The translations under genes were made by a program, and so were the position numbers. Under the pieces are notes generated by a model. That model made no database searches. It was not told where the DNA came from and worked only from the letters and a program-made list of their open reading frames with translations. Shown piece by piece: positions 1,310 to 22,861 of a DNA stretch of 32,291 nucleotides (positions within the stretch are counted from its first letter, which is position 1; every line of letters starts with the position of its first letter). The DNA comes from Candidatus Rokuibacteriota bacterium (lineage in GTDB: Bacteria > Methylomirabilota > Methylomirabilia > Rokubacteriales > CSP1-6), in assembly GCA_050731715.1 (NCBI GenBank), contig JBOHPM010000002.1, forward strand, positions 1 to 32,291, read 5' to 3'.

Positions 1310-1912
1310 TCATCGCCCCGCGGGGCTGCGCGAACCCACCATGTCGAATGCCGCGGGGCGCCGGGAAGCCTTGATCATCGACAGCGTCGCGGCCACGAGG
1401 TGGGCGTAGGAGAGCTTGCGGCGCGAAGTAGCGGAGTGATAGCGCCCGACACCACCCCAGCCGGCCTCCCGGTCCATGCTGTGGCGGAGGATGAGAGCGC
1501 CGACGATCAGGTTCGTCCACGGCTCGAGGAGATCGGCCTTACGCAGGCCGAGCGCACGGCCCCAGTGTCGGTACGAGACTTGGGCGTAGCCGATATCCAC
1601 GTCGTCGCCGACCCGGCCCAGTATTCGCTCGGCCTCCGCGCGCGTCCGAGGGTAGAGGCTGACGCCGTTGATGTTGAGCGCCCAGGGCCACGCGCGACTC
1701 TCGACCCAGACGATCGAACTGAGGAGGTCCGGATGCACTCCGGCGTGGCGTGCGGCGGACGCGATGAGTTCCGGGAGCGCCGCCACCTGTGCTTGGGCCA
1801 ACGTCGGCCGGAGGAGCGCGAGCAACGCAAGTCCGATGAGCACGCCCGCACGAGGCCACCAAGCAGCTCGGATGTCGCGGGTGCGAGGCGATTGGATCCT
1901 TCGTAGCTTCAT
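1310..1912 (-). CDS. Lytic transglycosylase, SLT/lysozyme-like domain (VirB1 / IagB / P19 / TrbN-like T4SS accessory muramidase)
   Basis: Catalytic-Glu block LLSSIVWVESRAWPWALNINGV and downstream DIGYAQVSYRHW are typical of specialised T4SS/T3SS transglycosylases. Preferred start is ATG 1912 (MKLRRIQS...VLIGLALLALLRPTLAQAQ, a signal peptide) with GGGGGTGA about 8 nt upstream. The longest ORF in the track reaches 2017. Confidence 0.85.
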   Translation of the reverse strand: MKLRRIQSPRTRDIRAAWWPRAGVLIGLALLALLRPTLAQAQVAALPELIASAARHAGVHPDLLSSIVWVESRAWPWALNINGVSLYPRTRAEAERILGRVGDDVDIGYAQVSYRHWGRALGLRKADLLEPWTNLIVGALILRHSMDREAGWGGVGRYHSATSRRKLSYAHLVAATLSMIKASRRPAAFDMVGSRSPAGR

Positions 1913-2413
1913 CGACGTGCTCACCCCCAGCGTGCCAGCCAATCGAAGATGTCGTTTACGGACATGGCAGAAGCCTAGCGATGGCAATGGGCGAGTCCCG
2001 TCGCGAAGCCGGATCATCTACTCGAGACGCGTGAGCCCCGGAGCGCGGTGAGATTGGCGGGTCGTGTCACCGGGAGGGTGTCGTGCGCGCGTGGTCTCAG
2101 GTCGATCCTGGGGTGGGCTGCCGAGGAGCGTGCTTGCGCCAACCGCAGTCCAGTGGTGCTCGGCGAAACCGGCGAGCACACGAGAGCAAAACCGGCGACG
2201 CGCCGAAATGGCTCGAAGGGCCGCCAACGAACTCCATGTGCCTCCGGAGGCTCAGGCGCTGTATCGGAGGAGATACAGCTGTGCACGGACCAGCGGCATC
2301 GGAGATTGACGCCAGGTCGATTCACCGATATGCAGGGGGAGAGAGTCGGATAGGCCGCTCCCGCGGGCCTGAAGACGTGAATCCTGAAGACGGGGAGCCA
2401 CCAGGCGGCGACG

Positions 2414-3094: not shown

Positions 3095-3904
3095 TCACGG
3101 TGGGAAGATGGCCTCACGTTCTGACTCTGAGCCGCCTCGGAATTCGTTTTGCCGAGTTGTCTTCCCATGCGGCAGAGAAAGTCCACACGCACTTCTTTGA
3201 CGAGCGCGTCCATTGGCATATTTGCAGTGTCCGGCGAGCGGGCATTGCTGGCACTGTGGGTCCTTGATCGTGCACAGCATCGCGGCTAGGTCCAATAGTG
3301 CCCAGTTGAGCTCGGCCGCGTGCTTACCGCGTATGATGACTCGCGACACGGACTGAAGATGCGGGTCGTCACGGAGGTCTGCCAACCTGCGGGGTCCGAA
3401 CAACCGTTCCAGCACTCGTGCCATGTTCACGTCGAGTAGTGGCTCCGCCTTGCGACCGGAGAAGAGAAGGATGGAGCTCGCGACGTATTGGCCCACCGCG
3501 GGCAAGCTCTCGATCTCCTCCCGTGAGTGGGGGAACTGGCCGTCTCGAGAGGCCATCTCTCGCGCCAGAGCCGCAAGGGATGATGCACGTCGGCGCCAGA
3601 GGCCGATCGGCTTAAGGCAATTTCCGATCTGTTCGATGCTAGCATCGGCGATAGCCTGCCACGATGGAAAGCGAGTCGTGAATTCGTTGAAGAAAGCGCC
3701 GACGGTCTGGGCTCTGGTTCGTTGCAGCAGGATCTCTGCAAGGACGCGCTCGTAAAGACTCGTTCCCTCTTCTCGCCAGGGAAATCTTCGGCCGCTTGAC
3801 TTGAACCACCGTAGTAGAGCGCGACGAATTGCCGCAGCCGTACGCGGTGAGATCCCAACGCGGTGGATCTCGAACGGTCGCGATTTTCGTCCCGGTCGTC
3901 TCAC
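3095..3904 (-). CDS. HhH-GPD superfamily DNA glycosylase with [4Fe-4S] cluster loop (Nth/MutY family, Mig-type T:G mismatch glycosylase signature)
   Basis: Motifs: FPWR, LYERVLAEILLQRT, HhH LPAVGQYVASSILL, catalytic Asp in LLDVNMARVLER, and C-x6-C-x2-C-x5-C (CTIKDPQCQQCPLAGHC). Tyr140 (3485..3487) sits at the position of EndoIII Lys120, where MutY has Ser and Mig.MthI has Tyr. The GTG start at 3904 overlaps the upstream TGA (GTGA). Confidence 0.9.
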   Translation of the reverse strand: MRRPGRKSRPFEIHRVGISPRTAAAIRRALLRWFKSSGRRFPWREEGTSLYERVLAEILLQRTRAQTVGAFFNEFTTRFPSWQAIADASIEQIGNCLKPIGLWRRRASSLAALAREMASRDGQFPHSREEIESLPAVGQYVASSILLFSGRKAEPLLDVNMARVLERLFGPRRLADLRDDPHLQSVSRVIIRGKHAAELNWALLDLAAMLCTIKDPQCQQCPLAGHCKYANGRARQRSACGLSLPHGKTTRQNEFRGGSESEREAIFPP

Positions 3905-6900
3905 GTCCTCGTGAAGATCCGCGCCGCGCCGCCGTGCTGTGTCGCGCGCGGTCGCACGCGGATTTGCCGCGGCACAGCAAATAGTCCCTGCGTTGACGTG
4001 TTTGATTGCGCAAGACAGTGTCCCGGCTTCATGTCTAGTAACCTGTGGCCGCGGAACTCCGGGGCCACGCCTTCTAAATCCTGGACGTTTTCCCTGGTCC
4101 CGAGGTTGAAGACGAACCGGGTGGTCACGAAGCGGCTAATCCCCGACGGGATCGAGCGGACGTCTTGGGTGGCGAAGACGTAGGACGTCCCCTCGTGTCG
4201 CATCTGGCGGATGCGCGACTCCATGCGTTCGCCGAACGCCTCGCTCATGTACTCATGCGCTTCATCGAAAATGACGATCTTATTGAACTGCCCTTGGATG
4301 CGGCTGACGTGATTCGCGCAAACGAGGAAGAACCTGAGGGCGTCATCCTTGTTGAACAGCGGCTGGCGTAGGTCGACGATCACGACGCGGCCGGGCCGCA
4401 GCAACTGCCCGAAGTCCACCCCACGTCCTTCGGAAATGTAGCGGCGAACGAAGTCAAAGCGCAGGCGGGCTGCGGATCGACTCTGCCCGCTAAGCCGGTT
4501 CGCGACCTCGTGGTCAAGTTGATCGAGGGTGACCTCTCCTGCGGCTCGCAGGTCAACCAAGGTATTTCGAATCGTCCGCGCGAACACGGCCTCGCTACCC
4601 GGCTCTCCCATGAGAAGTTCCCAGTCCTCCACGTCGAGAACCCGTGGGTCGAAGAACAACTCATTGGCCTGGATCGCGTTGTACTCTTGGGCCCGCGCAG
4701 GCCGTAGTTCCCCCGGCAAGCAAAGGATGCGGATGTCCGAGACCGCTGCGGCGTGCGCCCGGTACTCCGAGGCGAGGCGTTCAACGTCAAGTGCGTCGTC
4801 GTTAGGGAACGCGAATGAGTTCAGCTCGAAACGGTCAGACGCGTTCCGACGGTAGTTGAAGATGACCACGGCGAGGGGGGCCGGCAGCGAATTCACCCCG
4901 GGAATAGGGAGCACAGCAGACTCGACTATCGTTCCAAGCAAGTAACTCTTGCCTGAGCCCATGTAGCCAAAAATCCCGAGCGTCTTCGGATGGTCCAGGT
5001 CAAGTGCGACTAGTTCGTTGCCCCCGGAAAGCCGACCAACGGCAGTCCATCTTGTACTTAGCGAGGACCAGCCGATGACGAAACGCGGCGTCTCAGTCTC
5101 TTGCGGCGACGTTGACGCCTCAACTGTTGTCGGTGCGACCCCTTTCACACCGGCGGACTCCAATGTCTCCGAAGCAGGCGCCGTTGCAGGCGGGGGACTA
5201 CTAATGGGTGGTCCGGGGGGCTCATGGGGGACGGGGCGATGTGTTCCCCGTGCCTCCACCGCGGCGGCAGCTTCCACAGTCGCGGGGCCGGCCGAAATCG
5301 ACTCACCACGAGAGGCCAACGCTGCCTCACCGCTCGCGTCGAGGCCAAGCAGCGATGCGAGTTCATCTCGATTTGGCGGAACGCTTGTGGACCCGGCGGC
5401 ACACTTAGCGAAGCACGCTCGGATCACCTCATCCAGTTCGCCTCGGGTCTCGTTGTCCGCTTTCTGCATCGCCGTCGCATGCCACCAGAGGCCCGGTACC
5501 GCACACGGATCAATGTAGATTTCCCGAGTCTGGAGTGAGCCCACGACATGAGGAGGGTGCGGGTCGATCACGCATGGCCTCGCGGCGGTGTTGATGCAGC
5601 CAGGCGCAAACCAGAGGACGATCGGATCACCGACACCGATATGGAATGGAGCGGCAAGGATCTCCGACAGGATGGTGGACCGCCATAATGCGGCCGGTGG
5701 GTTCGGCGAAAAGCTCATAGCCAGGTCAACCAGCGTCGCAAGCCCTAGCCGCCTCAGGTAGCGCAATGCCGCCTCGCCAGGATCCGTGCCGGTGACGCTC
5801 GCGATGAAGTCCTTCAGCCAAGTGACCGTGTCGGCCAGCTGCTCACGGGCGTGCCTCAGCTCCGGGTTGGACGCGCCCGGGATTTTCTCCGGCGTCGCCG
5901 GCATCCCATGATGTTTGACCTCGGTCGGGACGAGGCACAGACTGAGCGCTCCGTCATCGCCCCGCGAAACGGCAAGGGCGAGCATGTCCGCCCGCAGCTC
6001 AAGGGCCCTACCGGCTAGCCCTTGGAGAATCGGCTCGACAGGGTCCAACGGGAGGACACCGTATACGAGGGGGCGTCGTTCCGCAGGCAACGCGCCGAAA
6101 GGCCCGACACCCTTGTTGGTCGATAGCACCTGAGTGGCGTAGAAAAAACCGGCGGCGGCGCTCTCCTGCGTGCCGCTCTCGGCATTCAGAGCGGCAAGAC
6201 CGATCCCCCGCTGACCGAGAACAGCGAGTAACTCCTCAGCGTTAGCCTGGGAAATGGCTTGGCGAGCGTGCAGCGCTGTCGTCAGCGACGCAGGCACACG
6301 CGCAATAACGTAGTATGGCCGCCGAGCCAAATCCGCGGCCCTTTTTTCGGTCACCATCCACGACGGTCGCCATTCCCACAGTAGACGTCGACCAGATGTG
6401 GCGGGCACGCCCGCGACGAGCGTGGCGAGTAGGGACGGGTCGACATTGAACGTCCCAAGCACTTCCCACTCCGCGCCGCGACCGATGCCGAGGGCGTGCA
6501 GCTGGGGGTTCGCTCGCAGGCAAAGCTTGTCTTCGCTGGCGGGTGCTTCAAGTAAGCGTAGCAGCGACGCCAGGCCAAGGATGTCCTCCCTGTCTCTCGG
6601 CAGGAAGTTTTGATCGAGCTGCGTTCCGGACAGGTCGGCAGGCAGGAATCGACGGAGCGGCAAAATACCAAGAACGCCATACGCCGCGCCAATCGTCACG
6701 GCCAAGTGAACAGTTGCGTTTTCCACGAGGGCGATGTCGGCATTACCGGGCGGCGCGGCAGGAGTATACACTCGCCACTCAAACGACCGATCCCGCTCCT
6801 GGTACCGCCGTCTCGCGAAGAGGGTGTCGCGCGTCGGCGGGTCGCCGCGGCGATCGAGCGAATCCCATACCCTCGCGCCGCCCCCTAGCGAAGACATTCC

Positions 6901-9819
6901 CTGCAAATCGCCGGCTCCAAGAAGGTCGAGAAGCGTATCGTCGATCTCCTTTGACCGCGGCGCTTCGCCGACCGAGCGGACGTCCACTTCGAGCGCGTTA
7001 AGGTGCGGGTGAACCGCAAGGTGATCACGCAGCGCTCGCTCTACTACGCGCGCGTTAATGCCTGTCTTGCCACCCCACGGGAGCGGTTGACCGCCTCCGA
7101 TCACCGGAAGATCGACTGTACCGGCGGGGCCAAGGACCGCGAGTGCACTCCAACCGATGAAATCCTGTTCCGGTCCAGGATCAATGGGGACGGCGACGAG
7201 CCAGCGACGCTCGCCCGCAGGGTTCAGTGTCGTCCCGACCGCGGGGATGTTCCAGCCTTCGAGTAGGCCGAGAAGCCCGTGATCGACCCTGCTCGATCTG
7301 CCGATCGCGGTCACGGCGTAGCCCCAGGCGAGCCGAGCTGGATGGAGCGGTGAGAGGAACACCGCCTGGACTTGCCCGAAGTTCGCCCCGCCCGTACCGT
7401 CCACCACCACTACCGAGAACGGGTACGACGCCCAGAACCGGTCGGCCGGGCTATTGACCCGGGTGGCCGCTTCGATGAGCGCACGGTGCTCTTCGAGGAC
7501 GGCGCGTATCGTGGCAGCATCGATCAGGCTCGGGTCGACGCCGCTAAGCCAAAGAGTCTCCGCGCCAGATCGAAGGCCGAGCGCCGCACACGCTTGGCCC
7601 ATACGAACCATAAAAGCGCCCCACTCTGGAGTGCCGATCAGGGCCGGCGTAGGCCCGTCGCCGATACCTGGCAGCACGAAGTTTTCCGGCCGGGCGAAGA
7701 GAATGCGGGGGGCTGGGCCGCCGTGATGCGGCTGCCAGATAATCGGCTCGTTAGAACCGGCTATGACGTACTGGTACAGGGAATCGAGTGCCGCGGGTGC
7801 CGACCCGCACAGCACGGGCGTAACACTGCTCTGGTACTGTCCGAGAACGCTTTGACGAGCTGCGGCAGCCGGTGGGCGCCGCCCAGCAGGGAGGCCACGC
7901 ACCGCGGACAAAATGCCGGAGGAAAGGTTATTCGATCGTTCCCTGACGTGGAATACAGCCACATCCCTGCCGTGAACAGGATGCGTGTCGGAGATGACAA
8001 CGCCATCGTCGAGGTCGTGTTCGACCAACGGAAATAGGCCGCCGGTTGACGGCGGGAACGCGATTCCCGTGACCGCGGGCTCGCCCACGTCTCGAAAAGC
8101 CGCAGCCCACGGCTCCAGGACGCCATCGTAGACGCGCACCTGATAGCGCCCCTCCTCGCCGAGGAGGATTGTCGGTGTGGTCGCCGCGGCCCACGATGTT
8201 TGGCCGGCGGCGGTTGCAGTGAACGTCTCCTCGTCGTCCGGACCCACCGCCTCGAGGTTTCCATCATCGATGACCAGGACGGTGGGGGAGAATGGCGAGG
8301 GGACGATGACCTTGATCTCGGTCTCAACTCGCCTGGGAGCGTCCCACTCGCCGCCGTGTCGTAGCCTGACAGCAAGGGTCACCCTGAGTTTTTGCTCGGG
8401 GCTCCACTCCCCGGAAATGTCATTCGACTGCGGGCTCCGTTTGGCGGTGTACTCGATCTGTAAATCGCAAGTAATTCGTAGCTGCCCGCTGAGGCTTGCG
8501 ACCGTCTGAAGCTGGCTGAACGTGCATCCCTTCATCTTCAGGTTGATACTCGCCGGCGCTACCCACGCGTCTCCTTCGTTGGCCGACGTCGGCTCCGCCT
8601 CGGCGACGAAAAGCGCTCTCCAATCCTCCTTGTAATGCAGTCCGACGCCGGTGAGGGTCACCCTCGCTCGCCATCTCGTCGGTGTGGGTGCATGAGATAC
8701 AACGCCGATACGCGTATCGAGGACGAACTCATTAGCCTCGGGCTCCGCCAGCGGTCGGAACCCCGGGCACGTGGGGTCCGGAGACAACGGCACCGACTCG
8801 CGGAGGCGCGCTAGTGCCTTCTCAAGGTGCTCTGTTGTGACGCCCCACCACGAGGGGCGATCCGGCGCCGAGGTGTTCGGAATCGTTGCAGACAGAAGCG
8901 TCGGTGACGGTGGCGATGCGAAGACAGCAGCGCCGACTACGGGTGCTGGAGAATCCAATGGGAGCATCTGGAGACGGTTCCAGTCGAGGTCTCGCCACGG
9001 GGTCAACTTCACCGGACCGACGCTCTCACGGTCAAGGGCGAGTAACAGTTCCGACACGCCGCCGTCGCGGAGGAGCAGCGATTGGGTGATGCCGTCCCAG
9101 AGGTCGCTGGCCTTCTCCATCTGCGTCAGCGGAACTCTTCGGGGAGCCTCGAGAAACGGGTTGGCATCCTTAACGAGCGCAGCCGGCAACGGCAGCCCGG
9201 ATAGCCGGACAACTTCCCAGGCGTGGCGCGGCGCCACGACGCCTGAAACCGAAAAGGAGGCTAGCCCGGCGTCGAGATTGTCCAGCATCGACGCGACATG
9301 CACGAGGAATCGGTCGCTCCAGTGGACGCCGGGCGTGTTGCCGGCTCTCTCGAACGACCTGCACAGCACCTCGCTAACCCAGGTGGTCGCTTCTAGGAAG
9401 GCCTCGTACGCGTCCCCGTTCGGAAGCCAATCGCGGTGCTCCCACAGCTCACGAACACACGCACGCACTATGAGAGGCAGGCTACACTCTCCTCCCCCAG
9501 CGCCCGGGAACCGCCTGGAAATGAATGGCCGAACAACGCTCTGGAAAGATGAGTCGGGCTCGTGCAATCCTCGCCGCCAGACGAACACGCGGTCCTCATC
9601 GGTCCGCCACGCGAGTAACTGGCGCCAACCAATCGTGACGTTCCCCAGCCCGGGTTCCGCCGCAGCCAAAGAGACAAGGAACGCCCGGTTCGGAGCCATC
9701 GTGTTGGCGTACTCGACGAGCGCAGTCATCTCCGCGGTCAACGGCCCAGGCAATTCAACGGAGTACAATCCACGGAGCGACGAGAGGTAACGGGCAATGG
9801 CGCGTCCCAGCACTGGCAT
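3901..9819 (-). CDS. Giant 1972-aa protein with C-terminal HerA/DUF87-type (FtsK-HerA superfamily) ATPase; DptH(DndH)-like architecture
   Basis: ATG 9819 lies 6 nt after the upstream stop. The C-terminal ~370 aa carry Walker A LGIFGYMGSGKSY (4945..4968), Walker B KIVIFDEAHEYM (4261..4278) and RHEGTSYVFATQDVRSIP. A Pro/Ala/Ser-rich linker sits at about 5085..5335. In the N-terminal ~1500 aa the only motif I see is a candidate PD-(D/E)xK (ADMLALAV...LCLVPTEVK, 5914..5990). The DptH assignment is architectural only. Confidence 0.9.
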   Translation of the reverse strand: MPVLGRAIARYLSSLRGLYSVELPGPLTAEMTALVEYANTMAPNRAFLVSLAAAEPGLGNVTIGWRQLLAWRTDEDRVFVWRRGLHEPDSSFQSVVRPFISRRFPGAGGGECSLPLIVRACVRELWEHRDWLPNGDAYEAFLEATTWVSEVLCRSFERAGNTPGVHWSDRFLVHVASMLDNLDAGLASFSVSGVVAPRHAWEVVRLSGLPLPAALVKDANPFLEAPRRVPLTQMEKASDLWDGITQSLLLRDGGVSELLLALDRESVGPVKLTPWRDLDWNRLQMLPLDSPAPVVGAAVFASPPSPTLLSATIPNTSAPDRPSWWGVTTEHLEKALARLRESVPLSPDPTCPGFRPLAEPEANEFVLDTRIGVVSHAPTPTRWRARVTLTGVGLHYKEDWRALFVAEAEPTSANEGDAWVAPASINLKMKGCTFSQLQTVASLSGQLRITCDLQIEYTAKRSPQSNDISGEWSPEQKLRVTLAVRLRHGGEWDAPRRVETEIKVIVPSPFSPTVLVIDDGNLEAVGPDDEETFTATAAGQTSWAAATTPTILLGEEGRYQVRVYDGVLEPWAAAFRDVGEPAVTGIAFPPSTGGLFPLVEHDLDDGVVISDTHPVHGRDVAVFHVRERSNNLSSGILSAVRGLPAGRRPPAAAARQSVLGQYQSSVTPVLCGSAPAALDSLYQYVIAGSNEPIIWQPHHGGPAPRILFARPENFVLPGIGDGPTPALIGTPEWGAFMVRMGQACAALGLRSGAETLWLSGVDPSLIDAATIRAVLEEHRALIEAATRVNSPADRFWASYPFSVVVVDGTGGANFGQVQAVFLSPLHPARLAWGYAVTAIGRSSRVDHGLLGLLEGWNIPAVGTTLNPAGERRWLVAVPIDPGPEQDFIGWSALAVLGPAGTVDLPVIGGGQPLPWGGKTGINARVVERALRDHLAVHPHLNALEVDVRSVGEAPRSKEIDDTLLDLLGAGDLQGMSSLGGGARVWDSLDRRGDPPTRDTLFARRRYQERDRSFEWRVYTPAAPPGNADIALVENATVHLAVTIGAAYGVLGILPLRRFLPADLSGTQLDQNFLPRDREDILGLASLLRLLEAPASEDKLCLRANPQLHALGIGRGAEWEVLGTFNVDPSLLATLVAGVPATSGRRLLWEWRPSWMVTEKRAADLARRPYYVIARVPASLTTALHARQAISQANAEELLAVLGQRGIGLAALNAESGTQESAAAGFFYATQVLSTNKGVGPFGALPAERRPLVYGVLPLDPVEPILQGLAGRALELRADMLALAVSRGDDGALSLCLVPTEVKHHGMPATPEKIPGASNPELRHAREQLADTVTWLKDFIASVTGTDPGEAALRYLRRLGLATLVDLAMSFSPNPPAALWRSTILSEILAAPFHIGVGDPIVLWFAPGCINTAARPCVIDPHPPHVVGSLQTREIYIDPCAVPGLWWHATAMQKADNETRGELDEVIRACFAKCAAGSTSVPPNRDELASLLGLDASGEAALASRGESISAGPATVEAAAAVEARGTHRPVPHEPPGPPISSPPPATAPASETLESAGVKGVAPTTVEASTSPQETETPRFVIGWSSLSTRWTAVGRLSGGNELVALDLDHPKTLGIFGYMGSGKSYLLGTIVESAVLPIPGVNSLPAPLAVVIFNYRRNASDRFELNSFAFPNDDALDVERLASEYRAHAAAVSDIRILCLPGELRPARAQEYNAIQANELFFDPRVLDVEDWELLMGEPGSEAVFARTIRNTLVDLRAAGEVTLDQLDHEVANRLSGQSRSAARLRFDFVRRYISEGRGVDFGQLLRPGRVVIVDLRQPLFNKDDALRFFLVCANHVSRIQGQFNKIVIFDEAHEYMSEAFGERMESRIRQMRHEGTSYVFATQDVRSIPSGISRFVTTRFVFNLGTRENVQDLEGVAPEFRGHRLLDMKPGHCLAQSNTSTQGLFAVPRQIRVRPRATQHGGAARIFTRT

Positions 9820-9825
9820 GGCGGC

Positions 9826-11370
9826 TCAGAACCCCGCTCGGATCACGAGCGCGTCGTCGGCGTCGGGGCTATCGGTGCTCAACCCCGCCTCCTCCAGCAT
9901 GCCTACTATCACCGATCGCTCTACTCGAACACCGAGAGACACGAGATCTCGTCTCAGGTCTCCGAGCGTACAGGACCCGCCGGGCCTGACGCAGAGCAGA
10001 CTGGTAATGACGACGAGCCACTCCGGGCCCGGGCGGAACCACATGTGCCGCCCGCTGCTCCTAGCGAGGTAGTAGAAGTCTGCGTGGTCAACGGAATCGT
10101 CGTCTGATGAACGCGGTAGAAGGAGATACCGGACAAATTCTTTCTGGTTGTTCGCCATTGACGATGTGACCCGGATCGAAGTGCCGATCGACGAGAGTTG
10201 CTCTCCGGTGAGAGCCTCGACCCACAGTTCGATCGAGTTCGCGAGCGAGGCTGCGGTAGGCAGCGTGTCCCCGATTCCGGCGTTGAGTAGCTGATCTCGT
10301 GCCTTCCATCCGCGCGCAATCAAGTCCGAGGTAGCAGGCCAAATGCCCTTCTGGCTCGCCGGCACTTCGGGCGGCTCAATAGTCGCTAGGACAGCTCCCT
10401 CGCTGAGGAGTGAATTGATCGGACTCGGGCTGATGGGCGGACTTCCTGCCAACCGGTTCACAACCATCTGGTGAAGCCTGCAGAAGAACTCCGCTTCCCA
10501 CAGGTACGCGAACGCGAGGCCCGTCCGCAATAAGCAGAGCGACCAGTCGACGAACCTCCGCGCAGGCAAGCGGTCGTGCCACTGGCTGGCGGGATCGCAA
10601 AGACACAACCACTTTGTCCAGAACCAGGCAAACGGTGCCTGCCGATAGGCGCTAAGCGCGGACTTTTCGCGCTCGATGGTTACCGCCGGCGTGACAGGTG
10701 GCCAGGCTGGCCATTCGCCTGACGGCTTCGAGTATTTTGCGGGGAGGCCTGCCCAAGCGTGAGCGGCGATTCGAGGGAGAAGCCATTCGATGGCCCCGGT
10801 TGCACCCTTGCGCGGGTCGGGTGTTTCGGTGAAGAGGGCAAGAAACGCGCCCGCGGCGGCTCCTTCTTTCAGCGCTCCGCCGAGCCATGCCATCGACTCG
10901 ATCGCTCTAGCGAGGTTCGCAGGGATCGGCTTATTTACTAACCCGTGTAGTGTCTGGAGAGCCACCGTCGCCGGGTGAATGGGGACGCACGCGGTCGACT
11001 TGTCACCGCGTGCTTGCGGTGCCCTGAGGGATTCGAGAAGCGGCCGGACAGGGCCACGTGCCCCGGTAGGCACAGTCACGAGCCCAGTGACGTTAAAGGA
11101 TTCGGCGAGGGGTATAGTCTCGAGCGTGCGCGGACTTCCGCCCCGGAGCTTACGGGGCACTAACCGTTCCGGTTCGGGGAGATCGTCAGGATCCTCTCCC
11201 TTCACCTTGAGGCGCGAAAGATGCTCGATCATCTTGTTGCCATTGATGTCCGAAGCGAGCGACGAGCCTTCGGATCGCCAGAGCAAGTCGGTCAGTAGCG
11301 ACTCGGTCTGCTTCGCGTATTCTGGGCGGGGTAAATGCCCAAACAGTCTGGCGATCCAGGTCTCCTGCAT
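9826..11370 (-). CDS. 514-aa protein of unknown function; positional equivalent of DptG
   Basis: The track ORF is 545 aa (start 11463) and would overlap the upstream gene by 85 nt. Preferred start is ATG 11370 (MQETWIARLF...), 8 nt after the upstream TAA. The stop lies 6 nt before the next ATG. A Trp/Cys/Leu-rich core is present (FAWFWTKWLCLCDPASQWHDRLPARRFVDWSLCLL). No catalytic motif recognised. Confidence 0.8.
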   Translation of the reverse strand: MQETWIARLFGHLPRPEYAKQTESLLTDLLWRSEGSSLASDINGNKMIEHLSRLKVKGEDPDDLPEPERLVPRKLRGGSPRTLETIPLAESFNVTGLVTVPTGARGPVRPLLESLRAPQARGDKSTACVPIHPATVALQTLHGLVNKPIPANLARAIESMAWLGGALKEGAAAGAFLALFTETPDPRKGATGAIEWLLPRIAAHAWAGLPAKYSKPSGEWPAWPPVTPAVTIEREKSALSAYRQAPFAWFWTKWLCLCDPASQWHDRLPARRFVDWSLCLLRTGLAFAYLWEAEFFCRLHQMVVNRLAGSPPISPSPINSLLSEGAVLATIEPPEVPASQKGIWPATSDLIARGWKARDQLLNAGIGDTLPTAASLANSIELWVEALTGEQLSSIGTSIRVTSSMANNQKEFVRYLLLPRSSDDDSVDHADFYYLARSSGRHMWFRPGPEWLVVITSLLCVRPGGSCTLGDLRRDLVSLGVRVERSVIVGMLEEAGLSTDSPDADDALVIRAGF

Positions 11371-11378
11371 AAGTGGCC

Positions 11379-13622
11379 TTATCCAGGTTGCACGCGCAGG
11401 GCGGCCGTCCCCGTCGGGCTCGGCACAAGCTGAAACGCGTCCCCCTTCTCGTCCGTGAACCAAGCGTTGATCCGCCGTAGGCGCCCTCGGCTTATGAGCG
11501 ACGCCCTTGCTCGCTCGATCCTGGCGAACGCCGTGTCGCCGATCTCGGTAAAGGCGTTCGTAGTTCCGTCAGCGTGCAGAAGCGACTCCCTGGCCACAGC
11601 GAGATCGACGGCCAGCGTCGCAAGCGGCTCCGTTGACGCTCCCCGGTGCCGCATTCTCACCTCGGCGATGAGGGCATCGCCCTGCGCGACGACCTGTACG
11701 TCCAGCTCATTTGGCTGCACGGTGACGAGAAGGGTCTCGCTCGGGAGGTCTCCCGTGAGGCAGTATGTCCTTGGTCGTAGCGGTGCCGTAAAGACCTTTT
11801 TGCCCCCTGCCGCCGGGATAATGAGATTGTTTATTCCGTCACCGAGCGGGAGTCGCTGACCGCCTAGTAAGGCGCTTGCCTGTTCAGCCAACCAGGCTCC
11901 GATCGCTTCCGCGTACCGGACATGCCCAAGCGCCGTCCCCACTTGACGGAGTACCATGACTGCTCTCCACCGTCGGAGGACCCGGACCCTTGAGACGGCC
12001 GCGCGTGTTCCCTTGGGCAGCTCGGCGGCGATCTCCTCGCGGAGAACGCGATCGAGCTGCTTCTCAATCTCTGAACTCGCCGCCTGCGGAATTTCAACCC
12101 ACGAGACAACTTGCTCCGCCGGCGAGACGATATCCAGCGATTCGACAGCGTCCATGACTCGCTTCCGAAGGCCGTCCCAACTCTCGGTGTCGAGCGCTGG
12201 GTCAATGTCCGCGAATGCTTTCTCGAAGGGTTGCAGCCGGGCGGCGTCACCAGACGGGACGAGCAGATCGATGATCGCGCCGAAGACGCTGTCCTTTAGC
12301 CTCGCGTCGGCGACGTCTCTGGTCACAAGGAAGCCGCCGCCGGGGTAGATGTTCGTGTAGATCCGATGCCGGGCGAGCCGAACGGTCACGGTCTTCTCTC
12401 CAGCGCCGCTCCCTAATCGCTGATGGGTGTCGGCGACCCATTGACATGGGTGCGTACCGGCTAGCCACTCCTCTTCCGCGGTCCCCATGATCGCCAGTGA
12501 AACGTGGCCAAGGAGGTCCCGATAAGTAAGCCTTCGCGTCGCGGCGATCTCCGCCGCACGGAGCGTATCCAGGAATCGGTGGCGAAGCGCGGGTTCCCGC
12601 AGCCAGACGGAGTTCTGTGTGAACGGGCACAGGTCGTAGGCTGAACACACTTGTCCCGATACCGCGTCTCTGCAACCGCCGCCCTCCCATCTGGGGGCGT
12701 CGGCATACATGGTCACAAGCCCACCCGCGACAGTGTTGTCCCTCGTCATGTCGGAACTCACGAGCCGGCCGAGTGTCAGGTACTGCGCGACCTCAGGCAG
12801 GGGTGCCGAAAAATCCACCACGCGGCCGCCGGCGCCCGGGATCGGCTCGAGCAAGGACAGCATGTCGAGGAAAACGACCCGAACACAGATGCCTACTGGG
12901 TGCTTACTCTCGGTTACGAGGCGAACCGTGAATTGTCCGTAGTGCGGTCTCTCGGAAGTAGGCTGCAGCACGTTATCCAGTGACCCATCGGCGTTCTCTG
13001 AGGGCGCTGACAGCCAGCGGATCATCGATGCGGCAAGACGCCCCTCTAGAGGCTCTGTAGACCAATCGGCCACGGCCCGAAGCGCGCCGCTTTCCTCGAC
13101 GAGAATTCCGCGGTTAACATTCACGAACAGCGAAGTCGGCTTTCCCCGGGCGGTGCGCCCGAGGGCGTCTGCGATGTCGTGAAAGAGAGAACCGGGCGAG
13201 CTCTCAACTGCTGCGACATCCTGTCTAGGAATCGACGCATCGTTCACGAACGCGAGTTCCAGGCTGTTTGCAAGCCGATCGGCCTCCGCGGGCCAGCCTA
13301 TCGGAATGGTTCTCGGAACGGGATCACCGGGACCTCGGGATGGCAGGACAATACCGAGCCTCCTGGCGAGTGACCGTAGGGCTTCGGACTTTCCGTTCCC
13401 TGGCCCGCCGACCAGAAAGCACCAGTCGATCTCTGTCGCGGCTGGCGACCAACCTGTGTGTCTGCTCGTGATGTGTTGCAGCACGTCCTCGATACCCGGG
13501 GGGAAGTCGCCTAGCACAAGAGGATCGGGTGTTCCTGACGTCGGCAGGGCGACCGTCCCTCCCTGGCCATAGGAATGCGTCAGAAGCCAGTGAACGATCT
13601 CATTCCGAACGTAGGAACTCAT
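11379..13622 (-). CDS. 747-aa P-loop NTPase; DptF-like position and N-terminal motif layout
   Basis: Walker A FLVGGPGNGKSE (13386..13409), then LELAFVNDASIP and SLFVNVNRGILVEE blocks. A Cys cluster C-x8-C-x5-C (GGGCRDAVSGQVCSAYDLCPF) sits at 12627..12674. ATG 13622 lies 9 nt after the MTase TAG. The DptF-like call rests on my memory of the GxxGxGKSE ... DA(T/S) ... (I/V)NxG(M/I)L pattern and is unverified. Confidence 0.9.
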   Translation of the reverse strand: MSSYVRNEIVHWLLTHSYGQGGTVALPTSGTPDPLVLGDFPPGIEDVLQHITSRHTGWSPAATEIDWCFLVGGPGNGKSEALRSLARRLGIVLPSRGPGDPVPRTIPIGWPAEADRLANSLELAFVNDASIPRQDVAAVESSPGSLFHDIADALGRTARGKPTSLFVNVNRGILVEESGALRAVADWSTEPLEGRLAASMIRWLSAPSENADGSLDNVLQPTSERPHYGQFTVRLVTESKHPVGICVRVVFLDMLSLLEPIPGAGGRVVDFSAPLPEVAQYLTLGRLVSSDMTRDNTVAGGLVTMYADAPRWEGGGCRDAVSGQVCSAYDLCPFTQNSVWLREPALRHRFLDTLRAAEIAATRRLTYRDLLGHVSLAIMGTAEEEWLAGTHPCQWVADTHQRLGSGAGEKTVTVRLARHRIYTNIYPGGGFLVTRDVADARLKDSVFGAIIDLLVPSGDAARLQPFEKAFADIDPALDTESWDGLRKRVMDAVESLDIVSPAEQVVSWVEIPQAASSEIEKQLDRVLREEIAAELPKGTRAAVSRVRVLRRWRAVMVLRQVGTALGHVRYAEAIGAWLAEQASALLGGQRLPLGDGINNLIIPAAGGKKVFTAPLRPRTYCLTGDLPSETLLVTVQPNELDVQVVAQGDALIAEVRMRHRGASTEPLATLAVDLAVARESLLHADGTTNAFTEIGDTAFARIERARASLISRGRLRRINAWFTDEKGDAFQLVPSPTGTAALRVQPG

Positions 13623-13631
13623 TGGTCTGGC

Positions 13632-14918
13632 CTACTCGCGCCGGACTTCGCGACTTATCGACAGCTCATGGGACACATCCTTAAGCAAGCGGCCGAGCAC
13701 CTCCGCAAGAAACGGCGGCACGGCGTTCGCCACTTGTGTGTACCGTGGACATTCTCGCACCCGCAGCTCCCCCCCCGTCGTGTACTTTCCCTTGAAGGCA
13801 TACCAGTCGGGAAAGGACTGGAGCCTGGCATACTCTCGAACCGTGAGGATCCTCGGCTCGGAGTAATGAATCAGGTCGTCGGGCAACGACGTCAGCGTGT
13901 GTGAGGGCTGCTCAGGATCCAGGGGCACGATGCAATTCTTCTTGAGCCCGAGACGCTTCCGCTCAGCGGGCGTCATCTGTACTCCGCGTCGGCACGTGGC
14001 TAGGATCTTCGCGAAGCGGTCCCGGATCTCCTCCCGGTGCTTCGCCAGGCGCATGCTGTTCGGAGAACTACCATTCATTGAGCCATGCAAGAGCGATTGA
14101 TAAACCGTGATGGGGAAGGTATAGGAGACCTGCTGGTAACCCCGGACATCAGGGCACGGTGCGAGTTCCTTTTGTACGGTCTCCAGGTCTGAGATCGCCT
14201 CCTGAACCCCGACGGGGCGATCCAACGGCAGTTCCTTTTCCGCCAGGAACTCCTTGCGGCGCTCCTCCAGCCGCGCATAAGGGTCATAATTGACGCGGTT
14301 CCTAAGTAGCCTCTTATCGATCGCAATCATGATGTATCGCGGCCTAAACTGCGGCACGCCGTAGTCCAACGCGCGGACCAGCTTCGGATACACGACGTAA
14401 CCGAGGGCGATCAGCCGCTCTTGGATCCTTACCGAAAATGGAGTTGGCGGGCGTCCCGGGCCGCGCTTCCTCGGCCTGTGCTTCTTCCCGAATTCGATGG
14501 CGACGCCGCGAACGTTCTCGAGGAACAAGAGGCGCGGGCGGAGAAGGGCGACGATCTCGAGATAGTGCTTGAAGAGGCCGTTGCGGGGGTCATCCTTTCT
14601 CCTGCGACCGGCGAAGGAGAAGCCTTGGCAGGGTGGGCCTCCCGCAATTAGGTCGACCTTCCCGCGTAGTGACTTAAGATTCCTCCTGTGCTGCTTCAAG
14701 AAGCCCCGTATTTCGCAGGACTCCCCGGGAAGCCAAGTGGGCCAGTCGTAGGACGGCATCTGCTCGAGCAAGTTGTGCTTGAGTGTCTCGAACGCGAACC
14801 GGTCAGCTTCTATGGCGAACAAGCCCTTCCAACCAGCCTGTGTCAAACCGAGCGATAGGCCGCCGCACCCCGCGAATATGTCGATGAACCTCAACCGGCT
14901 CGTGTCGCCGTCGCTCAC
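13632..14918 (-). CDS. DNA (cytosine-5)-methyltransferase, Dcm family
   Basis: Motif I FIDIFAGCGGLSLG, IV GGPPCQGFS, VI LFLENV, VIII QFRPRYIM, IX TVREYARLQSFPDWY, X TQVANAVPP. The TRD contains SHTLTS. GTG start at 14918 with GGGGGA about 7 nt upstream. First gene of the operon. Confidence 0.95.
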   Translation of the reverse strand: MSDGDTSRLRFIDIFAGCGGLSLGLTQAGWKGLFAIEADRFAFETLKHNLLEQMPSYDWPTWLPGESCEIRGFLKQHRRNLKSLRGKVDLIAGGPPCQGFSFAGRRRKDDPRNGLFKHYLEIVALLRPRLLFLENVRGVAIEFGKKHRPRKRGPGRPPTPFSVRIQERLIALGYVVYPKLVRALDYGVPQFRPRYIMIAIDKRLLRNRVNYDPYARLEERRKEFLAEKELPLDRPVGVQEAISDLETVQKELAPCPDVRGYQQVSYTFPITVYQSLLHGSMNGSSPNSMRLAKHREEIRDRFAKILATCRRGVQMTPAERKRLGLKKNCIVPLDPEQPSHTLTSLPDDLIHYSEPRILTVREYARLQSFPDWYAFKGKYTTGGELRVRECPRYTQVANAVPPFLAEVLGRLLKDVSHELSISREVRRE

Positions 14919-15203
14919 CCTACGTCCCCCGCCGGACGCCGCGGTCCCACGTGCCTTTCGATTCCCATGTGCAAGACAAAAGTCGCTTTAAGAGGAGAGC
15001 GCGACCGGTCGGTCCTCTCGTCCGTCTCTTGGCATGACCCGACGCCAGTGCCGAGGGTGTAACACGCTCAGCACGACGTTCCGTAGGGATGCCTCTTCCC
15101 CCGGTGCTCCGGCGCGCCACCCGTAGATGCACCCGAAGGACGACGCTACCACGGCCCTCGCCTGCAGAACGCCTTCCCTAGGACGCCTTGAGCTCGGGCT
15201 GTC

Positions 15204-15232
15204 ATCATATGTTTAGCTATCCTGGGTGTCAA
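15204..15232 (-). promoter_or_regulatory. Candidate sigma70-type promoter for the methyltransferase operon: TTGACA - 17 nt - TATGAT
   Basis: On the minus strand the -35 TTGACA is at 15232..15227 and the -10 TATGAT at 15209..15204, with an exact 17-nt spacer. It lies in the AT-richest patch I noticed in the 431-nt traG-MTase spacer. It would give a leader of about 280 nt. Consensus match only. Confidence 0.45.
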
Positions 15233-15349
15233 TTCGAAAGCCTCAGGGCCGGGGGTACGCTCCCGCGGCGGGGCACGGCCGTCCGAGGGCCGTCGCATCA
15301 CCCGTCAAGCTGCCGCATGGAGGGTGCCCACTGGACGCGGGCGGCGGCG

Positions 15350-16741
15350 CTACGGCTGGCCCGCGCTGCCCCGGGCCCCGCCCGACACAAGCGACCCCAA
15401 GAACGGGATCCGCCCGGGCGCCCAGCTGCTGAAGTTCGCGCCGATCCGGTGGCTGGCCACGCCGAAGAGCATGCTGACCAGCGCGGGGACCGAGAAGATG
15501 GTCAGCGCGGTGATGAACTGCAGGAGCGCCGGGTAGCGGGCGCTGTTGGGATCCGCGATCGCGCCACTCGCGATGAAGACCGGGAGAATCTTCTCGTGGG
15601 CCGTGGCAATCATCGCCCAGAAGACCGGCCACATCTTGAGCGACAGCAGCAACATCAGGTAGGTCGCGAAGCGCCCAAACTGGCCGGGCCAGAGCGCGAA
15701 GGCCAGCATGATCGGGAATACCGCGTAGGCAACCATCATCGTATAGCCGTAGAACACGTAGGCGGAGCGCTGGAAGAACTCGACGATCTGTCCCATGACC
15801 ACCGGGTTCCAGAGGCCGGCGATCGTACCGAGGACGAACGACGAGGCGCCCTGGAGCCAGGCCACCGGATCCAGCCAGTTGCGGCTCGGGCTCGAGGGGT
15901 CGAGCTGGCCGCCGCCCGGCGGCTCCACGGCCTCCCGATAGTTGCGGAGCGCGACGTTGACGACCCACTCGTCGCTGCCGAAGGTCCGGCTGAGCCACGC
16001 TAGGCTCGCGTTGACCCAGTCGGTGGCTGGCGTGATGTGGGTCCGCGCATACGTGGCAAGGGCCCCTTGGAGGTCCTGCCACCGAGTAGTGCAAGTCACG
16101 GCCTGGCCATTCGGGTCGGGGAACGCCAGCGTCGCGTAGTACTGCTGAAGCGCCGAGGCGGCCGGTGTGTTGACGCTGAGCGCATCCCGCTGCTCGGGCG
16201 GCGTATCCGCCTCCCACGCCTGCAGCGCCGCGCCGTAGCAGGTGTCCAGGAAGGTCCTGAGCCGGCCCTGGAGAGCGGGGTCGCCGTCGAACTTCTCGGC
16301 TGCAAGGCGGTTGACGACCACCAGCGCCGCGAAGGGTCGCTCGGCGAAGTCGCGCTTGATCATGTGGATCATCGACTGCGCGAGGCTGTGCATCGCGTCG
16401 TTGACCAGCACGAATCCCGCCGGCAGCGACGCGCTGGTCGTCGGCTGCAGGCTGGTGACGGCCGGGGCCACGGCGGCGTTGGCCTCCTCGGTAATCGACC
16501 TCTTCATCTCCACGGCCCGCGACGAGGCCCCGAACGCGAAGGCCAGGCCCGACGCGAGGACGAAGTGCATCGCCATGGGCAGGAGCGAGCCGTGCGGCAT
16601 GGTGCGGACTGCGGTCATGAACAGGCCCAGCAGGATGATGACCACGTAGACCCCACCGTTCCAGAACATGGCGTGAAGCTGCGAGCCCCAGGTCGCGCCG
16701 GTGAAGGCCAGGATCGAGTCGATCGGCGTGAAACCGGTCAT
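15350..16741 (-). CDS. traG: F-type T4SS TraG, N-terminal (pilus assembly) domain only, polytopic membrane protein
   Basis: 463 aa. TraG_N-like blocks: LRTFLDTCYGAAL (compare F TraG FQDYVQNCVMGDI) and C-terminal helices ...AVFPIMLAFALWPGQ...LLLSLKMWPVFWAMI (compare F ...MWLQTWPLLYAILN). The ~480-aa C-terminal mating-pair-stabilisation part of F TraG is absent. Confidence 0.85.
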   Translation of the reverse strand: MTGFTPIDSILAFTGATWGSQLHAMFWNGGVYVVIILLGLFMTAVRTMPHGSLLPMAMHFVLASGLAFAFGASSRAVEMKRSITEEANAAVAPAVTSLQPTTSASLPAGFVLVNDAMHSLAQSMIHMIKRDFAERPFAALVVVNRLAAEKFDGDPALQGRLRTFLDTCYGAALQAWEADTPPEQRDALSVNTPAASALQQYYATLAFPDPNGQAVTCTTRWQDLQGALATYARTHITPATDWVNASLAWLSRTFGSDEWVVNVALRNYREAVEPPGGGQLDPSSPSRNWLDPVAWLQGASSFVLGTIAGLWNPVVMGQIVEFFQRSAYVFYGYTMMVAYAVFPIMLAFALWPGQFGRFATYLMLLLSLKMWPVFWAMIATAHEKILPVFIASGAIADPNSARYPALLQFITALTIFSVPALVSMLFGVASHRIGANFSSWAPGRIPFLGSLVSGGARGSAGQP

Positions 16742-16751
16742 CGAGCGGGGA

Positions 16752-18059: not shown

Positions 18060-18062
18060 GGC

Positions 18063-22435: not shown

Positions 22436-22861
22436 CTAGAACGGCCCCTGCTTGCCGCCCGGCTGTCTCGATGCGCCCGGGACTTTCCAGGTACCGGGTC
22501 GCACCACGACCCATTGCCGGTGAGCGGGAATGACCATGCCGCCCACGACCTGGGCCGGAACCCAGATCTCCTGCATCACGGGCCCGACGTAGTAGAGGTT
22601 CTCGGGCTGCCTGGGCGAGGCGACCACCGGCAGACCGCCGTTGCGCTGGAGCTTCTCGAGCGTGTCGCGGACGCCCTGGCGATAAGACTCGGCCTCCGCG
22701 CCGGAGTGACCGTTCTTCTCCTGTGCGTTCGTCCATGAGGCAAGAGTGACCACCGCCCCGAGCGCGGAGAGCGCCGGAAAGATCGCCGTCGCGCACCCCT
22801 GGGTGCCGAGCGCGCCGGCGAGCACCACCGGAAGCCACAGCGCGGAACGAAGCCGTATCAC
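22436..22861 (-). CDS. Small membrane-anchored or lipoprotein with a TraV-like C-terminal motif (second TraV-like gene)
   Basis: GTG start in a GTGA overlap with the traC stop. N-terminus IRLRSALWLPVVLAGALGTQGC is a non-canonical lipobox. C-terminus MQEIWVPAQVVGGMVIPAHRQWVVVRPGTWKV resembles F TraV ALWIAPYIDNQDVYHQPSSVFFVIKPSAWG and the TraV encoded at 25362..25910. Confidence 0.7.
   Translation of the reverse strand: MIRLRSALWLPVVLAGALGTQGCATAIFPALSALGAVVTLASWTNAQEKNGHSGAEAESYRQGVRDTLEKLQRNGGLPVVASPRQPENLYYVGPVMQEIWVPAQVVGGMVIPAHRQWVVVRPGTWKVPGASRQPGGKQGPF

Follow-up and report, generated by a model that had tools for sequence, protein, structure and literature searches.

A nuclease-plus-motor protein related to DndH and MAD8 as the probable effector of a C5-methyltransferase-linked defense operon

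What does a protein of 1,972 amino acids (aa) do that no database names and that lies between a cytosine methyltransferase gene and a repair gene amid conjugation genes? The protein is encoded at 3901..9819 (-) in a 32,291-nucleotide stretch of DNA from a Candidatus Rokuibacteriota bacterium of the Rokubacteriales (GenBank assembly GCA_050731715.1, contig JBOHPM010000002.1, positions 1 to 32,291; herein the window). A first-pass annotation, made by a model from the sequence alone, had proposed a nuclease-plus-translocase effector with a candidate PD-(D/E)xK core, a disordered linker and a terminal HerA-type motor. We assign a probability of roughly 0.65 to the following reading: the protein serves as the effector in a defense operon of the restriction-modification-like kind, which a conjugative element carries as cargo. 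By analogy with the MADS and DndFGH systems, it would most likely use ATP to restrict DNA devoid of the operon's own 5-methylcytosine (m5C) mark.

Results

The open reading frame (ORF) at 3901..9819 is intact and runs uninterrupted for 1,972 codons. Among 5.8 billion clustered proteins there are only 44 full-length close homologs, nearly all 1920 to 2006 aa long and none with a functional name. Because the homologs align from residue 1, the ATG at 9819 is taken as the real start; the recorded gene call P0001 (1942 aa) begins 30 codons past it (skipping 9730..9819, -) and, since the first 30 residues are conserved in all homologs, is probably too short. A phmmer search with aa 1 through 1200 as the query, a full scan of 1.84 billion representatives, yielded 216 clusters (50% identity) in which at least the central domain is shared. 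About 20 of them are related over the full length, and more than 130 consist of proteins of ~1800 to 1900 aa that share only query residues 770 through 1185 (herein the sister family), annotated in RefSeq as "hypothetical protein," for example in Arthrobacter sp. PvP102. The Walker and nuclease motif residues are invariant in an alignment of 33 homologs spanning 39 to 78% identity, and the nuclease triad is kept in the sister family at ~20% overall identity, so the motif features of the sequence exceed chance.

The domain layout was derived from homology and from AlphaFold models of the N-terminal half (predicted local distance difference test, pLDDT, 81.4) and of aa 950 through 1972 (mean pLDDT 76.8). 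From the N terminus, and all on the minus strand, there follow a small α/β domain of order β-α-β-α-β (aa 1 through 85, 9565..9819; pLDDT mostly 79 to 91); a region of predicted helices only (aa 90 through 340, 8800..9552); a β-rich region, modeled as strands only and probably two β-sandwich domains (aa 345 through 630, 7930..8787; pLDDT 81 to 94); a central region conserved in the sister family and in MAD8 (aa 635 through 1190, 6250..7917); a restriction-endonuclease-like PD-(D/E)xK domain, assigned from motif and model, with a helical C-terminal half (aa 1190 through 1495, 5335..6252); a disordered linker rich in Pro, Ala, Ser and Glu (aa 1496 through 1575, 5095..5334; pLDDT 27 to 38); and an ATPase of the HerA/FtsK clade, recognized by Foldseek and hhalign (aa 1576 through 1972, 3904..5094). 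The linker (aa ~1496 through 1572) is the sole long modeled segment with pLDDT below 50 and the least conserved, length-variable part of the 33-homolog alignment.

The C-terminal 400 aa are, as judged from the model, a HerA/FtsK-type ATPase. Walker A (GYMGSGKS, aa 1618 through 1625, 4945..4968) and Walker B (IVIFDE, aa 1848 through 1853, 4261..4278) contain G1618, G1621, G1623, K1624, D1852 and E1853, which are invariant in 40 sequences of two families. According to Rakesh et al. (PMC10853773), the clade is marked by an arginine finger that precedes strand 4 and by a sensor-1 Gln with which that strand ends. Both have counterparts inside 4162..4215: in the segment RHEGTSYVFATQDVRSIP (aa 1874 through 1891), the stretch "RIRQMRHEGTSYVFATQD" holds the invariant R1874, upstream of strand 4 (model residues 929 through 935), and the invariant Q1885, in "FATQD." A four-helix insert (aa 1730 through 1792, 4444..4632) and the C-terminal tail "IRVRPRATQHGGAA" (3922..3963) fit the description of "clade 6" in the same paper.

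The first 50 Protein Data Bank (PDB) fold matches of the motor model are all HerA-type (HerA, TdpA, SIR2-HerA, DndH-C, VirB4), with Foldseek expect (E) values of 1.7e-12 for HerA (4d2i), 1.6e-11 for TdpA (8wfd), 2.3e-9 for the DndH C-domain (7es4; template modeling [TM] score 0.59) and 2.2e-7 for VirB4 (4ag6). HerA-like, FtsK and A32-type ATPases were returned from BFVD. Sequence models see less. Those searched were Pfam, NCBIfam release 20.0 (June 2026) and PADLOC v2.0.0 (2023); only DUF87 lies above threshold in Pfam, at exactly its gathering score of 23.2 bits, the only NCBIfam match is a subthreshold VirB4, and the PADLOC mad8 model, which covers the ATPase part, matches aa 1604 through 1967 (E 7.4e-15). 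A direct sequence search of the whole protein against the PDB gave no match, and the family profile gave only marginal P-loop matches there.

A superfamily 2 (SF2) DEAD/DEAH helicase was rejected. Only 119 aa follow the DEAH box, no Helicase_C or second RecA-like domain was found, the Pfam DEAD match spans 28 residues (E 0.0084, below threshold), and SF2 helicases are absent from the top PDB fold matches of the motor model. As a second RecA-like domain has neither space nor any trace here, the DEAH box is read as a plain Walker B. The first-pass annotation had reached the same view, and its details bear inspection: its Walker, nuclease-motif and linker positions map to the residues named, its linker interval of 5085..5335 corresponding to aa ~1496 through 1579, its spacing of ~230 aa between the Walker motifs measures 228 (Lys1624 to Asp1852), and its ~110 aa after the DEAH box falls slightly short of the 119 counted. 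Its HerA/FtsK-type motor is borne out by the fold matches, by DUF87 and mad8, and by the invariant Arg1874 and Gln1885, its disordered Pro/Ala/Ser linker by low pLDDT and lack of conservation, and its overall architecture of nuclease plus translocase is that described for DndH (PMC10853773).

A characterized relative emerged from plasmids. A tblastn search of 72,556 plasmids returned six matches, all to the ATPase part (31 to 37% identity). One record is unannotated; in the other five the match is the last gene of a MADS-type locus, all five with a kinase, a ~530- to 560-aa protein and a ~1730- to 1860-aa protein, and four of them beginning with an N6 methylase and a specificity subunit. NCBIfam equivalogs confirm MAD6, MAD7 and MAD8 in the Piscinibacter locus. 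Experiments have established MADS as a methylation-based defense system in which mad2-4 and mad6-8 are each needed; deletion of mad8 abolishes methylation-based phage defense, and its authors pointed out the similarity of MAD7 to DndG and of MAD8 to HerA (bioRxiv 10.1101/2023.03.30.534895). Our references were the MADS operon of Pseudomonas aeruginosa SMC4386 and relatives for MAD8 (NCBIfam NF047742, PADLOC PDLC04140), and TIGR03237, the PADLOC DndH models and the C-domain structure 7ES4 for DndH/DptH.

Comparison of the family with an alignment of five MAD8s by hhalign gave one colinear match, aa 764 through 1957 to MAD8 601 through 1830 (E 1.4e-61). The motor contributes strongly (E 2.5e-46, including a common "RPRVTQHGG" tail). 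With the ATPase removed and a broader profile, the central domain matches with a probability of 97.1% (E 5.6e-11, 214 columns) and the nuclease region matches the "RAD...ExK...Q" of MAD8 with a probability of 97.5% (E 7e-12); the narrow profile gave E values of 4.5e-8 and 6.5e-4, respectively. All three signatures, "P-x-H-P-L-R-L-A-W," "RAD...IEIK...Q" and "RPRVTQHGG," are present in the aligned MAD8s. On this profile evidence the protein is homologous to MAD8 from aa ~735 to its C terminus. MAD8 in turn matches the PADLOC DndH models (E 9.5e-7), just as MAD7 matches SspG, and we therefore place the protein, by sequence comparison, as a distant member of the DndH/MAD8 class of restriction endonuclease (REase)-HerA/FtsK effectors.

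The gene lies in a low-GC island (~3.0 to 15.0 kb; 0.60 to 0.64, flanks 0.68 to 0.71) of five tightly packed minus-strand genes that overlap or are separated by 6 to 9 nt. The first encodes a C5 cytosine DNA methyltransferase of 428 aa (13632..14918; PF00145, E 3.4e-49; TIGR00675, E 2.7e-37) with intact FAGCGG, GGPPCQGFS and LENVRG motifs, presumed to mark self DNA. A 747-aa P-loop NTPase follows in the "F" position (11379..13622), with Walker A (GGPGNGKS, aa 72 through 79), an "ND" motif (FVNDAS, aa 125 through 130), an Asn-type Walker B (NVNRGILVEE, aa 168 through 177) and a Cys cluster (aa 317, 326 and 332), all invariant in 10 homologs. Canonical Walker A, ND motif, Asn-type Walker B and Cys insert are the peculiarities published for DndF (PMC10853773). 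The 747-aa protein matches no curated model in Pfam, NCBIfam or PADLOC; by hhalign it matches the C-terminal nonkinase core of MAD6 (probability 86%, E 4.9e-6). The "G" position (9826..11370), always directly upstream of the large gene, is held by a 514-aa protein whose start is set at ATG 11370, because homologs are 512 to 520 aa long and TTG 11463 would overlap the upstream gene; it has no match in Pfam, NCBIfam, PADLOC or, including profile searches, the PDB. The 1972-aa protein takes the "H" position as the large nuclease-plus-motor subunit.

The fifth gene (3095..3904), which begins at a GTG overlapping the large gene's stop codon, encodes a 269-aa HhH-GPD DNA glycosylase of the MutY-catalytic-domain/Mig type, identified by profile and structure matches. 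It matches MutY catalytic domains (E ~1e-30) and, at full length, Mig.MthI (1kea, E 1e-26), has the 4Fe-4S motif C-x6-C-x2-C-x5-C and lacks the NUDIX-like C-domain that recognizes 8-oxoG; it also matches a REBASE-derived "nicking endonuclease" model of PADLOC (E 2.6e-27). From its sequence relationships it is presumed to repair T:G mismatches that arise by m5C deamination. An Arthrobacter sister locus supports this role, with Vsr in the glycosylase slot beside the C5 methylase (17190-17600 of that locus): two unrelated enzymes occupy one slot for m5C-deamination repair.

Eleven loci of the protein's own family, from Alphaproteobacteria (including Roseomonas ponticola), Pirellulales and metagenomes, preserve the gene order methyltransferase, F, G, H, glycosylase between unrelated flanks. 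A Brevundimonas locus has the first four genes in order, with no glycosylase seen, and in two Chloroflexia loci the methylase lies downstream on the opposite strand. The six sister loci examined all contain a C5 methyltransferase and homologs of the 747- and 514-aa proteins, with HhH-GPD twice and Vsr once; in some, the genes are rearranged and the methylase is encoded on the opposite strand. Homology of the F and G partners extends to both families; blastp of the 514-aa protein against its sister-locus counterpart gave E values of 1e-26 to 1e-85. Wherever flanks could be read, a C5 methyltransferase is adjacent (13/13 own-family and 6/6 sister loci, 19/19). In other loci, a 75- to 80-aa helix-turn-helix gene (HTH_31/HTH_3 or HTH_17) immediately precedes the methylase; no convincing small ORF lies at 14919..15350 of the window, where this controller protein seems to be missing or replaced.

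The motor differs between lineages. The ortholog in Candidatus Chloroploca sp. Khr17 (L012:10001-15868) shares 43% identity over aa 1 through 1494, lacks the HerA-type Walker A and ends in FtsK_alpha and FtsK_SpoIIIE domains (Pfam E 1.1e-13 and 1.2e-34). The sister-family motor matches PADLOC DndH models, in the ATPase part only (E 1e-44 to 1e-57). By these sequence matches, the motor has been exchanged at least twice within the relatives, since Chloroploca has an FtsK motor and the sister family a DndH-type motor. Exchange of the C-terminal motor between DndH lineages has been described as "HerA/FtsK capture" (PMC10853773).

These swaps bear on the main rival explanation, that the three proteins intercept foreign DNA during transfer, segregation or packaging irrespective of methylation. 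The trigger would then be invader proteins or nucleotides, and the methyltransferase would have a different task, for example protection of the element against restriction in the recipient or a role as an addiction module. A mechanism of this sort has been proposed by Rakesh et al. (PMC10853773) for DndFGH and its HerA/FtsK-capture relatives. In its favor are also the exchange of the motor among lineages, as though each version suited a different target, the rapid evolution of the N-terminal domains, and the location of the window copy within a cluster of conjugation genes. We nevertheless judge it improbable: adjacency of a C5 methyltransferase in 19/19 loci, across two families ~20% identical, is hard to explain unless the mark is used, a dedicated T:G repair gene travels along, and the homologous MADS discriminates by methylation.

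Whether the complex would cut DNA turns on the candidate nuclease domain. Its core, ELRADM...TEVKHH (aa 1274 through 1304, 5908..6000; the first-pass interval 5914..5990 spans ADM...TEVK), supplies the candidate catalytic residues R1276-A-D1278 (5986..5994, -) and P1298-T-E-V-K1302 (5914..5928, -), with D1259 (6043..6045, -) and Q1327 (5839..5841, -) to either side. The conservation check proposed in the first-pass annotation was run by MAFFT alignment of 152 proteins of two families, and the candidate survived it: D1259, D1278, E1300, Q1327 and G1224 are invariant, and K1302 is Lys in 145/152, otherwise Arg or Thr. R1276, D1278, P1298, E1300, K1302 and H1303 are invariant in the 33-sequence alignment, and even a divergent Chloroflexia variant (L015) retains "RPDLLVIAI...ITPVEVK." As far as alignments can tell, such conservation of D, E, K and Q is what a functional metal-dependent active site would show.

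In the AlphaFold model, D1278 directly precedes a strand (1279 through 1286), and E1300-V-K1302 lies within the partner strand (1292 through 1303) of a hairpin (pLDDT 84 to 95). The predicted order of helix, strand, helix, β-hairpin with D and ExK, and long helix with Q1327 is compatible with the α-β-β-β-α-β core, as a fold test that is not decisive. When the C-terminal half was compared with BFVD by Foldseek, ATPases predominated, and herpesvirus UL24 matched only weakly (E 0.026 to 0.097). We take UL24, from the literature, to be a PD-(D/E)xK protein. The PD-(D/E)xK candidate thus stands on motif, conservation and the MAD8 alignment, and a clean match to a solved nuclease was not obtained.

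That shortfall leaves room for a second alternative, in which the nuclease-like domain binds DNA without cutting it and the complex blocks replication or packaging by translocating on, or clamping, unmethylated DNA. Some methylation-based systems, BREX among them, defend without visible cleavage. We consider it less probable still than methylation-independent interception, given the invariance of D1259, D1278, E1300 and Q1327 and near-invariance of K1302 across 152 proteins. The DndH REase, moreover, keeps all its catalytic residues (Rakesh et al., PMC10853773), and the DndFGH complex is reported to nick as well as translocate DNA (PMC11662687).

The region upstream of the nuclease divides in two. 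The central region bears the signature "LSPLHPARLAW" (aa 822 through 832, 7324..7356), of which PLHPxRLAW recurs in 98/101 sister proteins together with the nuclease triad; aa ~770 through 1185 match more than 130 sister proteins at 30 to 36% identity. The ~1200 aa that the first-pass annotation had left unexplained thus shrink to the first ~735, the part from aa ~735 onward being MAD8-homologous. Within these, the helical region (aa 90 through 340) is family-specific, unmatched in the sister family and MAD8, and aa 1 through 640 show no similarity to MAD8 by hhalign. Foldseek of the N-terminal 1150 aa against the PDB gave nothing at E<1e-3, neither for aa 1 through 85 nor elsewhere, only immunoglobulin (Ig)-like matches for the β-rich region (aa 345 through 630; E 6e-3 or worse) and weak Rossmann methyltransferase matches for the central region (probability 0.82 to 0.85, E >0.2).

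Large unassigned domains of this kind could read modified bases, a conjectural role that the first-pass annotation had already raised, and the weak Rossmann signal points the same way, toward a modification-dependent, Type IV-like enzyme that senses and attacks foreign modified DNA. This is very unlikely. The linked active methyltransferase (19/19) would poison such a system unless the specificities differ, and SRA, YTH, EVE and other known modified-base reader domains were not detected in the Pfam scan or the N-terminal Foldseek search.

The island is flanked by F-type conjugation genes (1310..2017, 15350..19028 and 22858..25620, all -), encoding an SLT transglycosylase, TraG_N, TraH, TraF and a 920-aa TraC, whose gene (22858..25620) carries its own DUF87/AAA_10 ATPase domain; the cassette is accordingly read as cargo inside a transfer region. 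No direct repeats were found flanking the island. In other loci the cassette stands beside integrases, TrwC relaxase, ArdC and HipA, and its neighbors change entirely (integrase, hydantoinase genes, a YcaO cluster). That the protein is itself a conjugation ATPase, VirB4/TraC-like or coupling-protein-like, and not a defense gene, is suggested by the flanking TraG_N, TraH, TraF, TraC and SLT genes and by weak VirB4 and AAA_10 matches, but is highly implausible and was rejected, as the cassette is independent of its flanks: its composition stays constant while neighbors change, its GC content differs from that of the transfer genes, and the window has a TraC of its own.

Several variant loci were observed. 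A Chloroflexia metagenome-assembled genome (MAG) holds a divergent form of the entire system (L015:1904-13473), in which the large protein (1859 aa) is similar only from aa ~1068 and in the PLHP motif, and is accompanied by a 525-aa partner, an apparently split F-like gene (417- and 318-aa ORFs), an HhH-GPD gene and a methylase on the opposite strand. Other copies appear decayed: in L014:6186-15872 the F-like gene is split into three, the G-like gene contains a stop and the large gene is interrupted near aa 1270; L007:10001-15859 has an in-frame stop at codon 1397; and in L005:8416-9747 the G-like gene is shortened. They could be true pseudogenes or MAG assembly errors. On a 5.4-kb contig binned as archaeal (MAG LSA3.bin14, L016:18-2125), the large gene is represented by its C-terminal part, at 56% identity, together with the glycosylase; horizontal transfer or a binning artifact could account for this. 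Beside one cassette (L002:16628-22294) are two HNH_5 genes, both weakly matched, and genes for a 776-aa unknown and a DUF5677 protein, with HipA and ArdC upstream; the region looks like a defense/anti-defense island and may hold further uncharacterized systems.

Discussion

The operon combines parts and a logic known from DndFGH and MADS into what is probably an unnamed restriction system. What is new is the gene combination, the coupling to a C5 methylase and T:G repair, and roughly half of the large protein. A C5-methylase-linked, DndFGH-like operon is not described in the literature that we searched, whose coverage excluded subscription-only papers, and the three proteins go unrecognized by Pfam, NCBIfam and PADLOC except for the DUF87 and mad8 matches to the ATPase of the large one.

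Several results count against our interpretation. For the nuclease, the region in 11 homologs matched no nuclease family in Pfam at E up to 10, and no solved nuclease matched significantly, the list of the top 50 PDB matches being filled by ATPases. The AlphaFold models were built from shallow 33-sequence alignments and have predicted TM scores of 0.53 to 0.55, so their domain arrangement is unreliable. The first ~735 aa matched nothing by PDB Foldseek or MAD8 hhalign. The NCBIfam MADS8 equivalog, which covers 200 N-terminal positions and scores 231 bits on a true MAD8, does not match here, and the DndH, DptH and SspH models of NCBIfam and PADLOC leave the large protein unmatched at E up to 0.1. 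Comparisons of the 514-aa protein with MAD7/DndG were nonsignificant whether made with a single MAD7, the MAD7 alignment, C-terminal slices or a broadened profile, though its C-terminal ending looks like that of MAD7 ("G-L-x-x-D-S-P-D-A" / "G-F-Y-x-D-L-S-D-A"). With this partner lacking detectable similarity, the "FGH" equivalence is only two-thirds supported. Finally, DndFGH can act without a modification module of its own, according to Rakesh et al. (PMC10853773).

MADS and DndFGH are among the closest known systems. The protein is like MAD8 in size (1850 to 1970 aa), in its colinear central domain, nuclease and same-clade ATPase with the "RPRVTQHGG" tail, in the central "P-x-H-P-x-R-x-A-W" motif, in being the last of a three-gene module after a P-loop-containing protein and a ~500- to 560-aa protein, and in its methyltransferase-linked defense operon. 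It differs in the N-terminal ~735 aa, which show no similarity. MADS, moreover, has a Type I-like N6-adenine methylase with a specificity subunit where this operon has a single C5 cytosine methylase, and a Ser/Thr kinase fused to MAD6 plus MAD1, MAD3 and MAD4 where here there is no kinase; only here is a T:G repair glycosylase attached, and no relationship between the 514-aa partner and MAD7 was detected. Membership of MADS was rejected on these grounds: the methylase is of the C5 type, and kinase, S subunit and MAD7 are missing from the window and related loci.

The published DndH core has eight domains: an inactive SWI2/SNF2 C-domain, HTH, two β-sandwiches, a target recognition domain (TRD), an inactive Dam with a nested TRD, REase and HerA/FtsK (PMC10853773). 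Its partners are DndF, a derived P-loop kinase, and DndG, a triple winged-HTH protein. The protein shares with the DndH plan a long multidomain N-terminal part with probable β-sandwiches, an REase-like domain and an exchangeable C-terminal HerA/FtsK ATPase; its partner F has DndF hallmarks, and its motor matches the 7ES4 fold. The modeled N-terminal half (small α/β, helical, β-rich with two likely sandwiches, helical plus α/β) resembles the plan, without proof. With the REase-like and HerA/FtsK domains the whole order is compatible, these last two being the only ones identified, and aa 1 through 85 would correspond by position, as an analogy only, to the inactive SWI2/SNF2 C-domain. The link to DndH is, however, transitive via MAD8, with no direct model match; phosphorothioation genes (dndA-E or ssp) occur in none of the loci, the inactive adenine-methylase domain and TRDs are not demonstrated in the large protein, and the G-position protein does not match DndG. 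A canonical DndH was rejected, as no profile model matched and dnd genes were not found.

HerA-nuclease systems (HerA-NurA, SIR2-HerA/Nezha, DUF4297-HerA and TdpAB) provide the best structural matches of the motor and the concept of a HerA hexamer that feeds DNA to its partner effector. In those systems motor and effector are separate and the HAS-barrel is full, whereas here they are fused via a disordered linker, with ~40 aa of β-strand before the P-loop, and only here is there a methyltransferase link. The outer genes of the operon reproduce the pairing of C5 methyltransferase and T:G repair in Dcm-Vsr and M.MthTI-Mig.MthI, but three large genes (~3200 aa in total) replace the Type II endonuclease. 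Druantia type II (DruM-DruF-DruG-DruE) was rejected: DruE, DruF and DruG find no match, there is no helicase/DUF1998 domain, and the methylase scores lower on the DruM models of PADLOC than on its generic Type II methylase models.

In the restriction reading that we favor, the C5 methyltransferase would mark the host's own DNA, and the Mig-like glycosylase would repair the T:G mismatches left by m5C deamination, limiting the mutational cost. The 747-aa, 514-aa and DndH/MAD8-like proteins would act jointly against unmarked DNA; that they form a complex, read m5C and cleave is suggested by the parallel with MADS and DndFGH. DNA would be bound and inspected by the N-terminal domains, which evolve fast, together with the conserved central domain, and the PD-(D/E)xK domain would nick or cut it. 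The HerA/FtsK ATPase on its flexible linker would form a ring on double-stranded DNA and pump it, either delivering DNA to the nuclease or moving the complex away from the recognition site; the direction and the purpose of this translocation we infer.

On the question of how DndFGH-type modules discriminate self from nonself, Rakesh et al. (2024, PMC10853773) argue that these modules often lack coupled modification genes. MADS is a branch that uses N6-adenine methylation, and the C5-linked branch would be a third. We regard it as an evenly balanced proposition that the latter is a widespread, unnamed defense family (~200 clusters at 50% identity, Arthrobacter to Planctomycetota) in which an engine of the DndFGH/MAD6-8 type is permanently coupled to a C5 methyltransferase and T:G repair. 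If the engine reads m5C, FGH-type modules would be modification-agnostic, plugging into phosphorothioate, N6-adenine or C5-cytosine marks, with the DNA motor (MAD8-type, DndH-type or genuine FtsK) swapped as a cassette.

This third branch would also offer a cleaner experimental handle: one methylase, one readable mark and three restriction genes, with m5C mappable by bisulfite or nanopore sequencing. The sister form has cultured hosts in Arthrobacter sp. PvP102 and UNC362MFTsu5.1, and the natural motor swaps would be a ready-made test of what the translocase contributes. As the proteins are annotated "hypothetical" and missed by the PADLOC and NCBIfam releases searched, surveys of defense islands undercount them.

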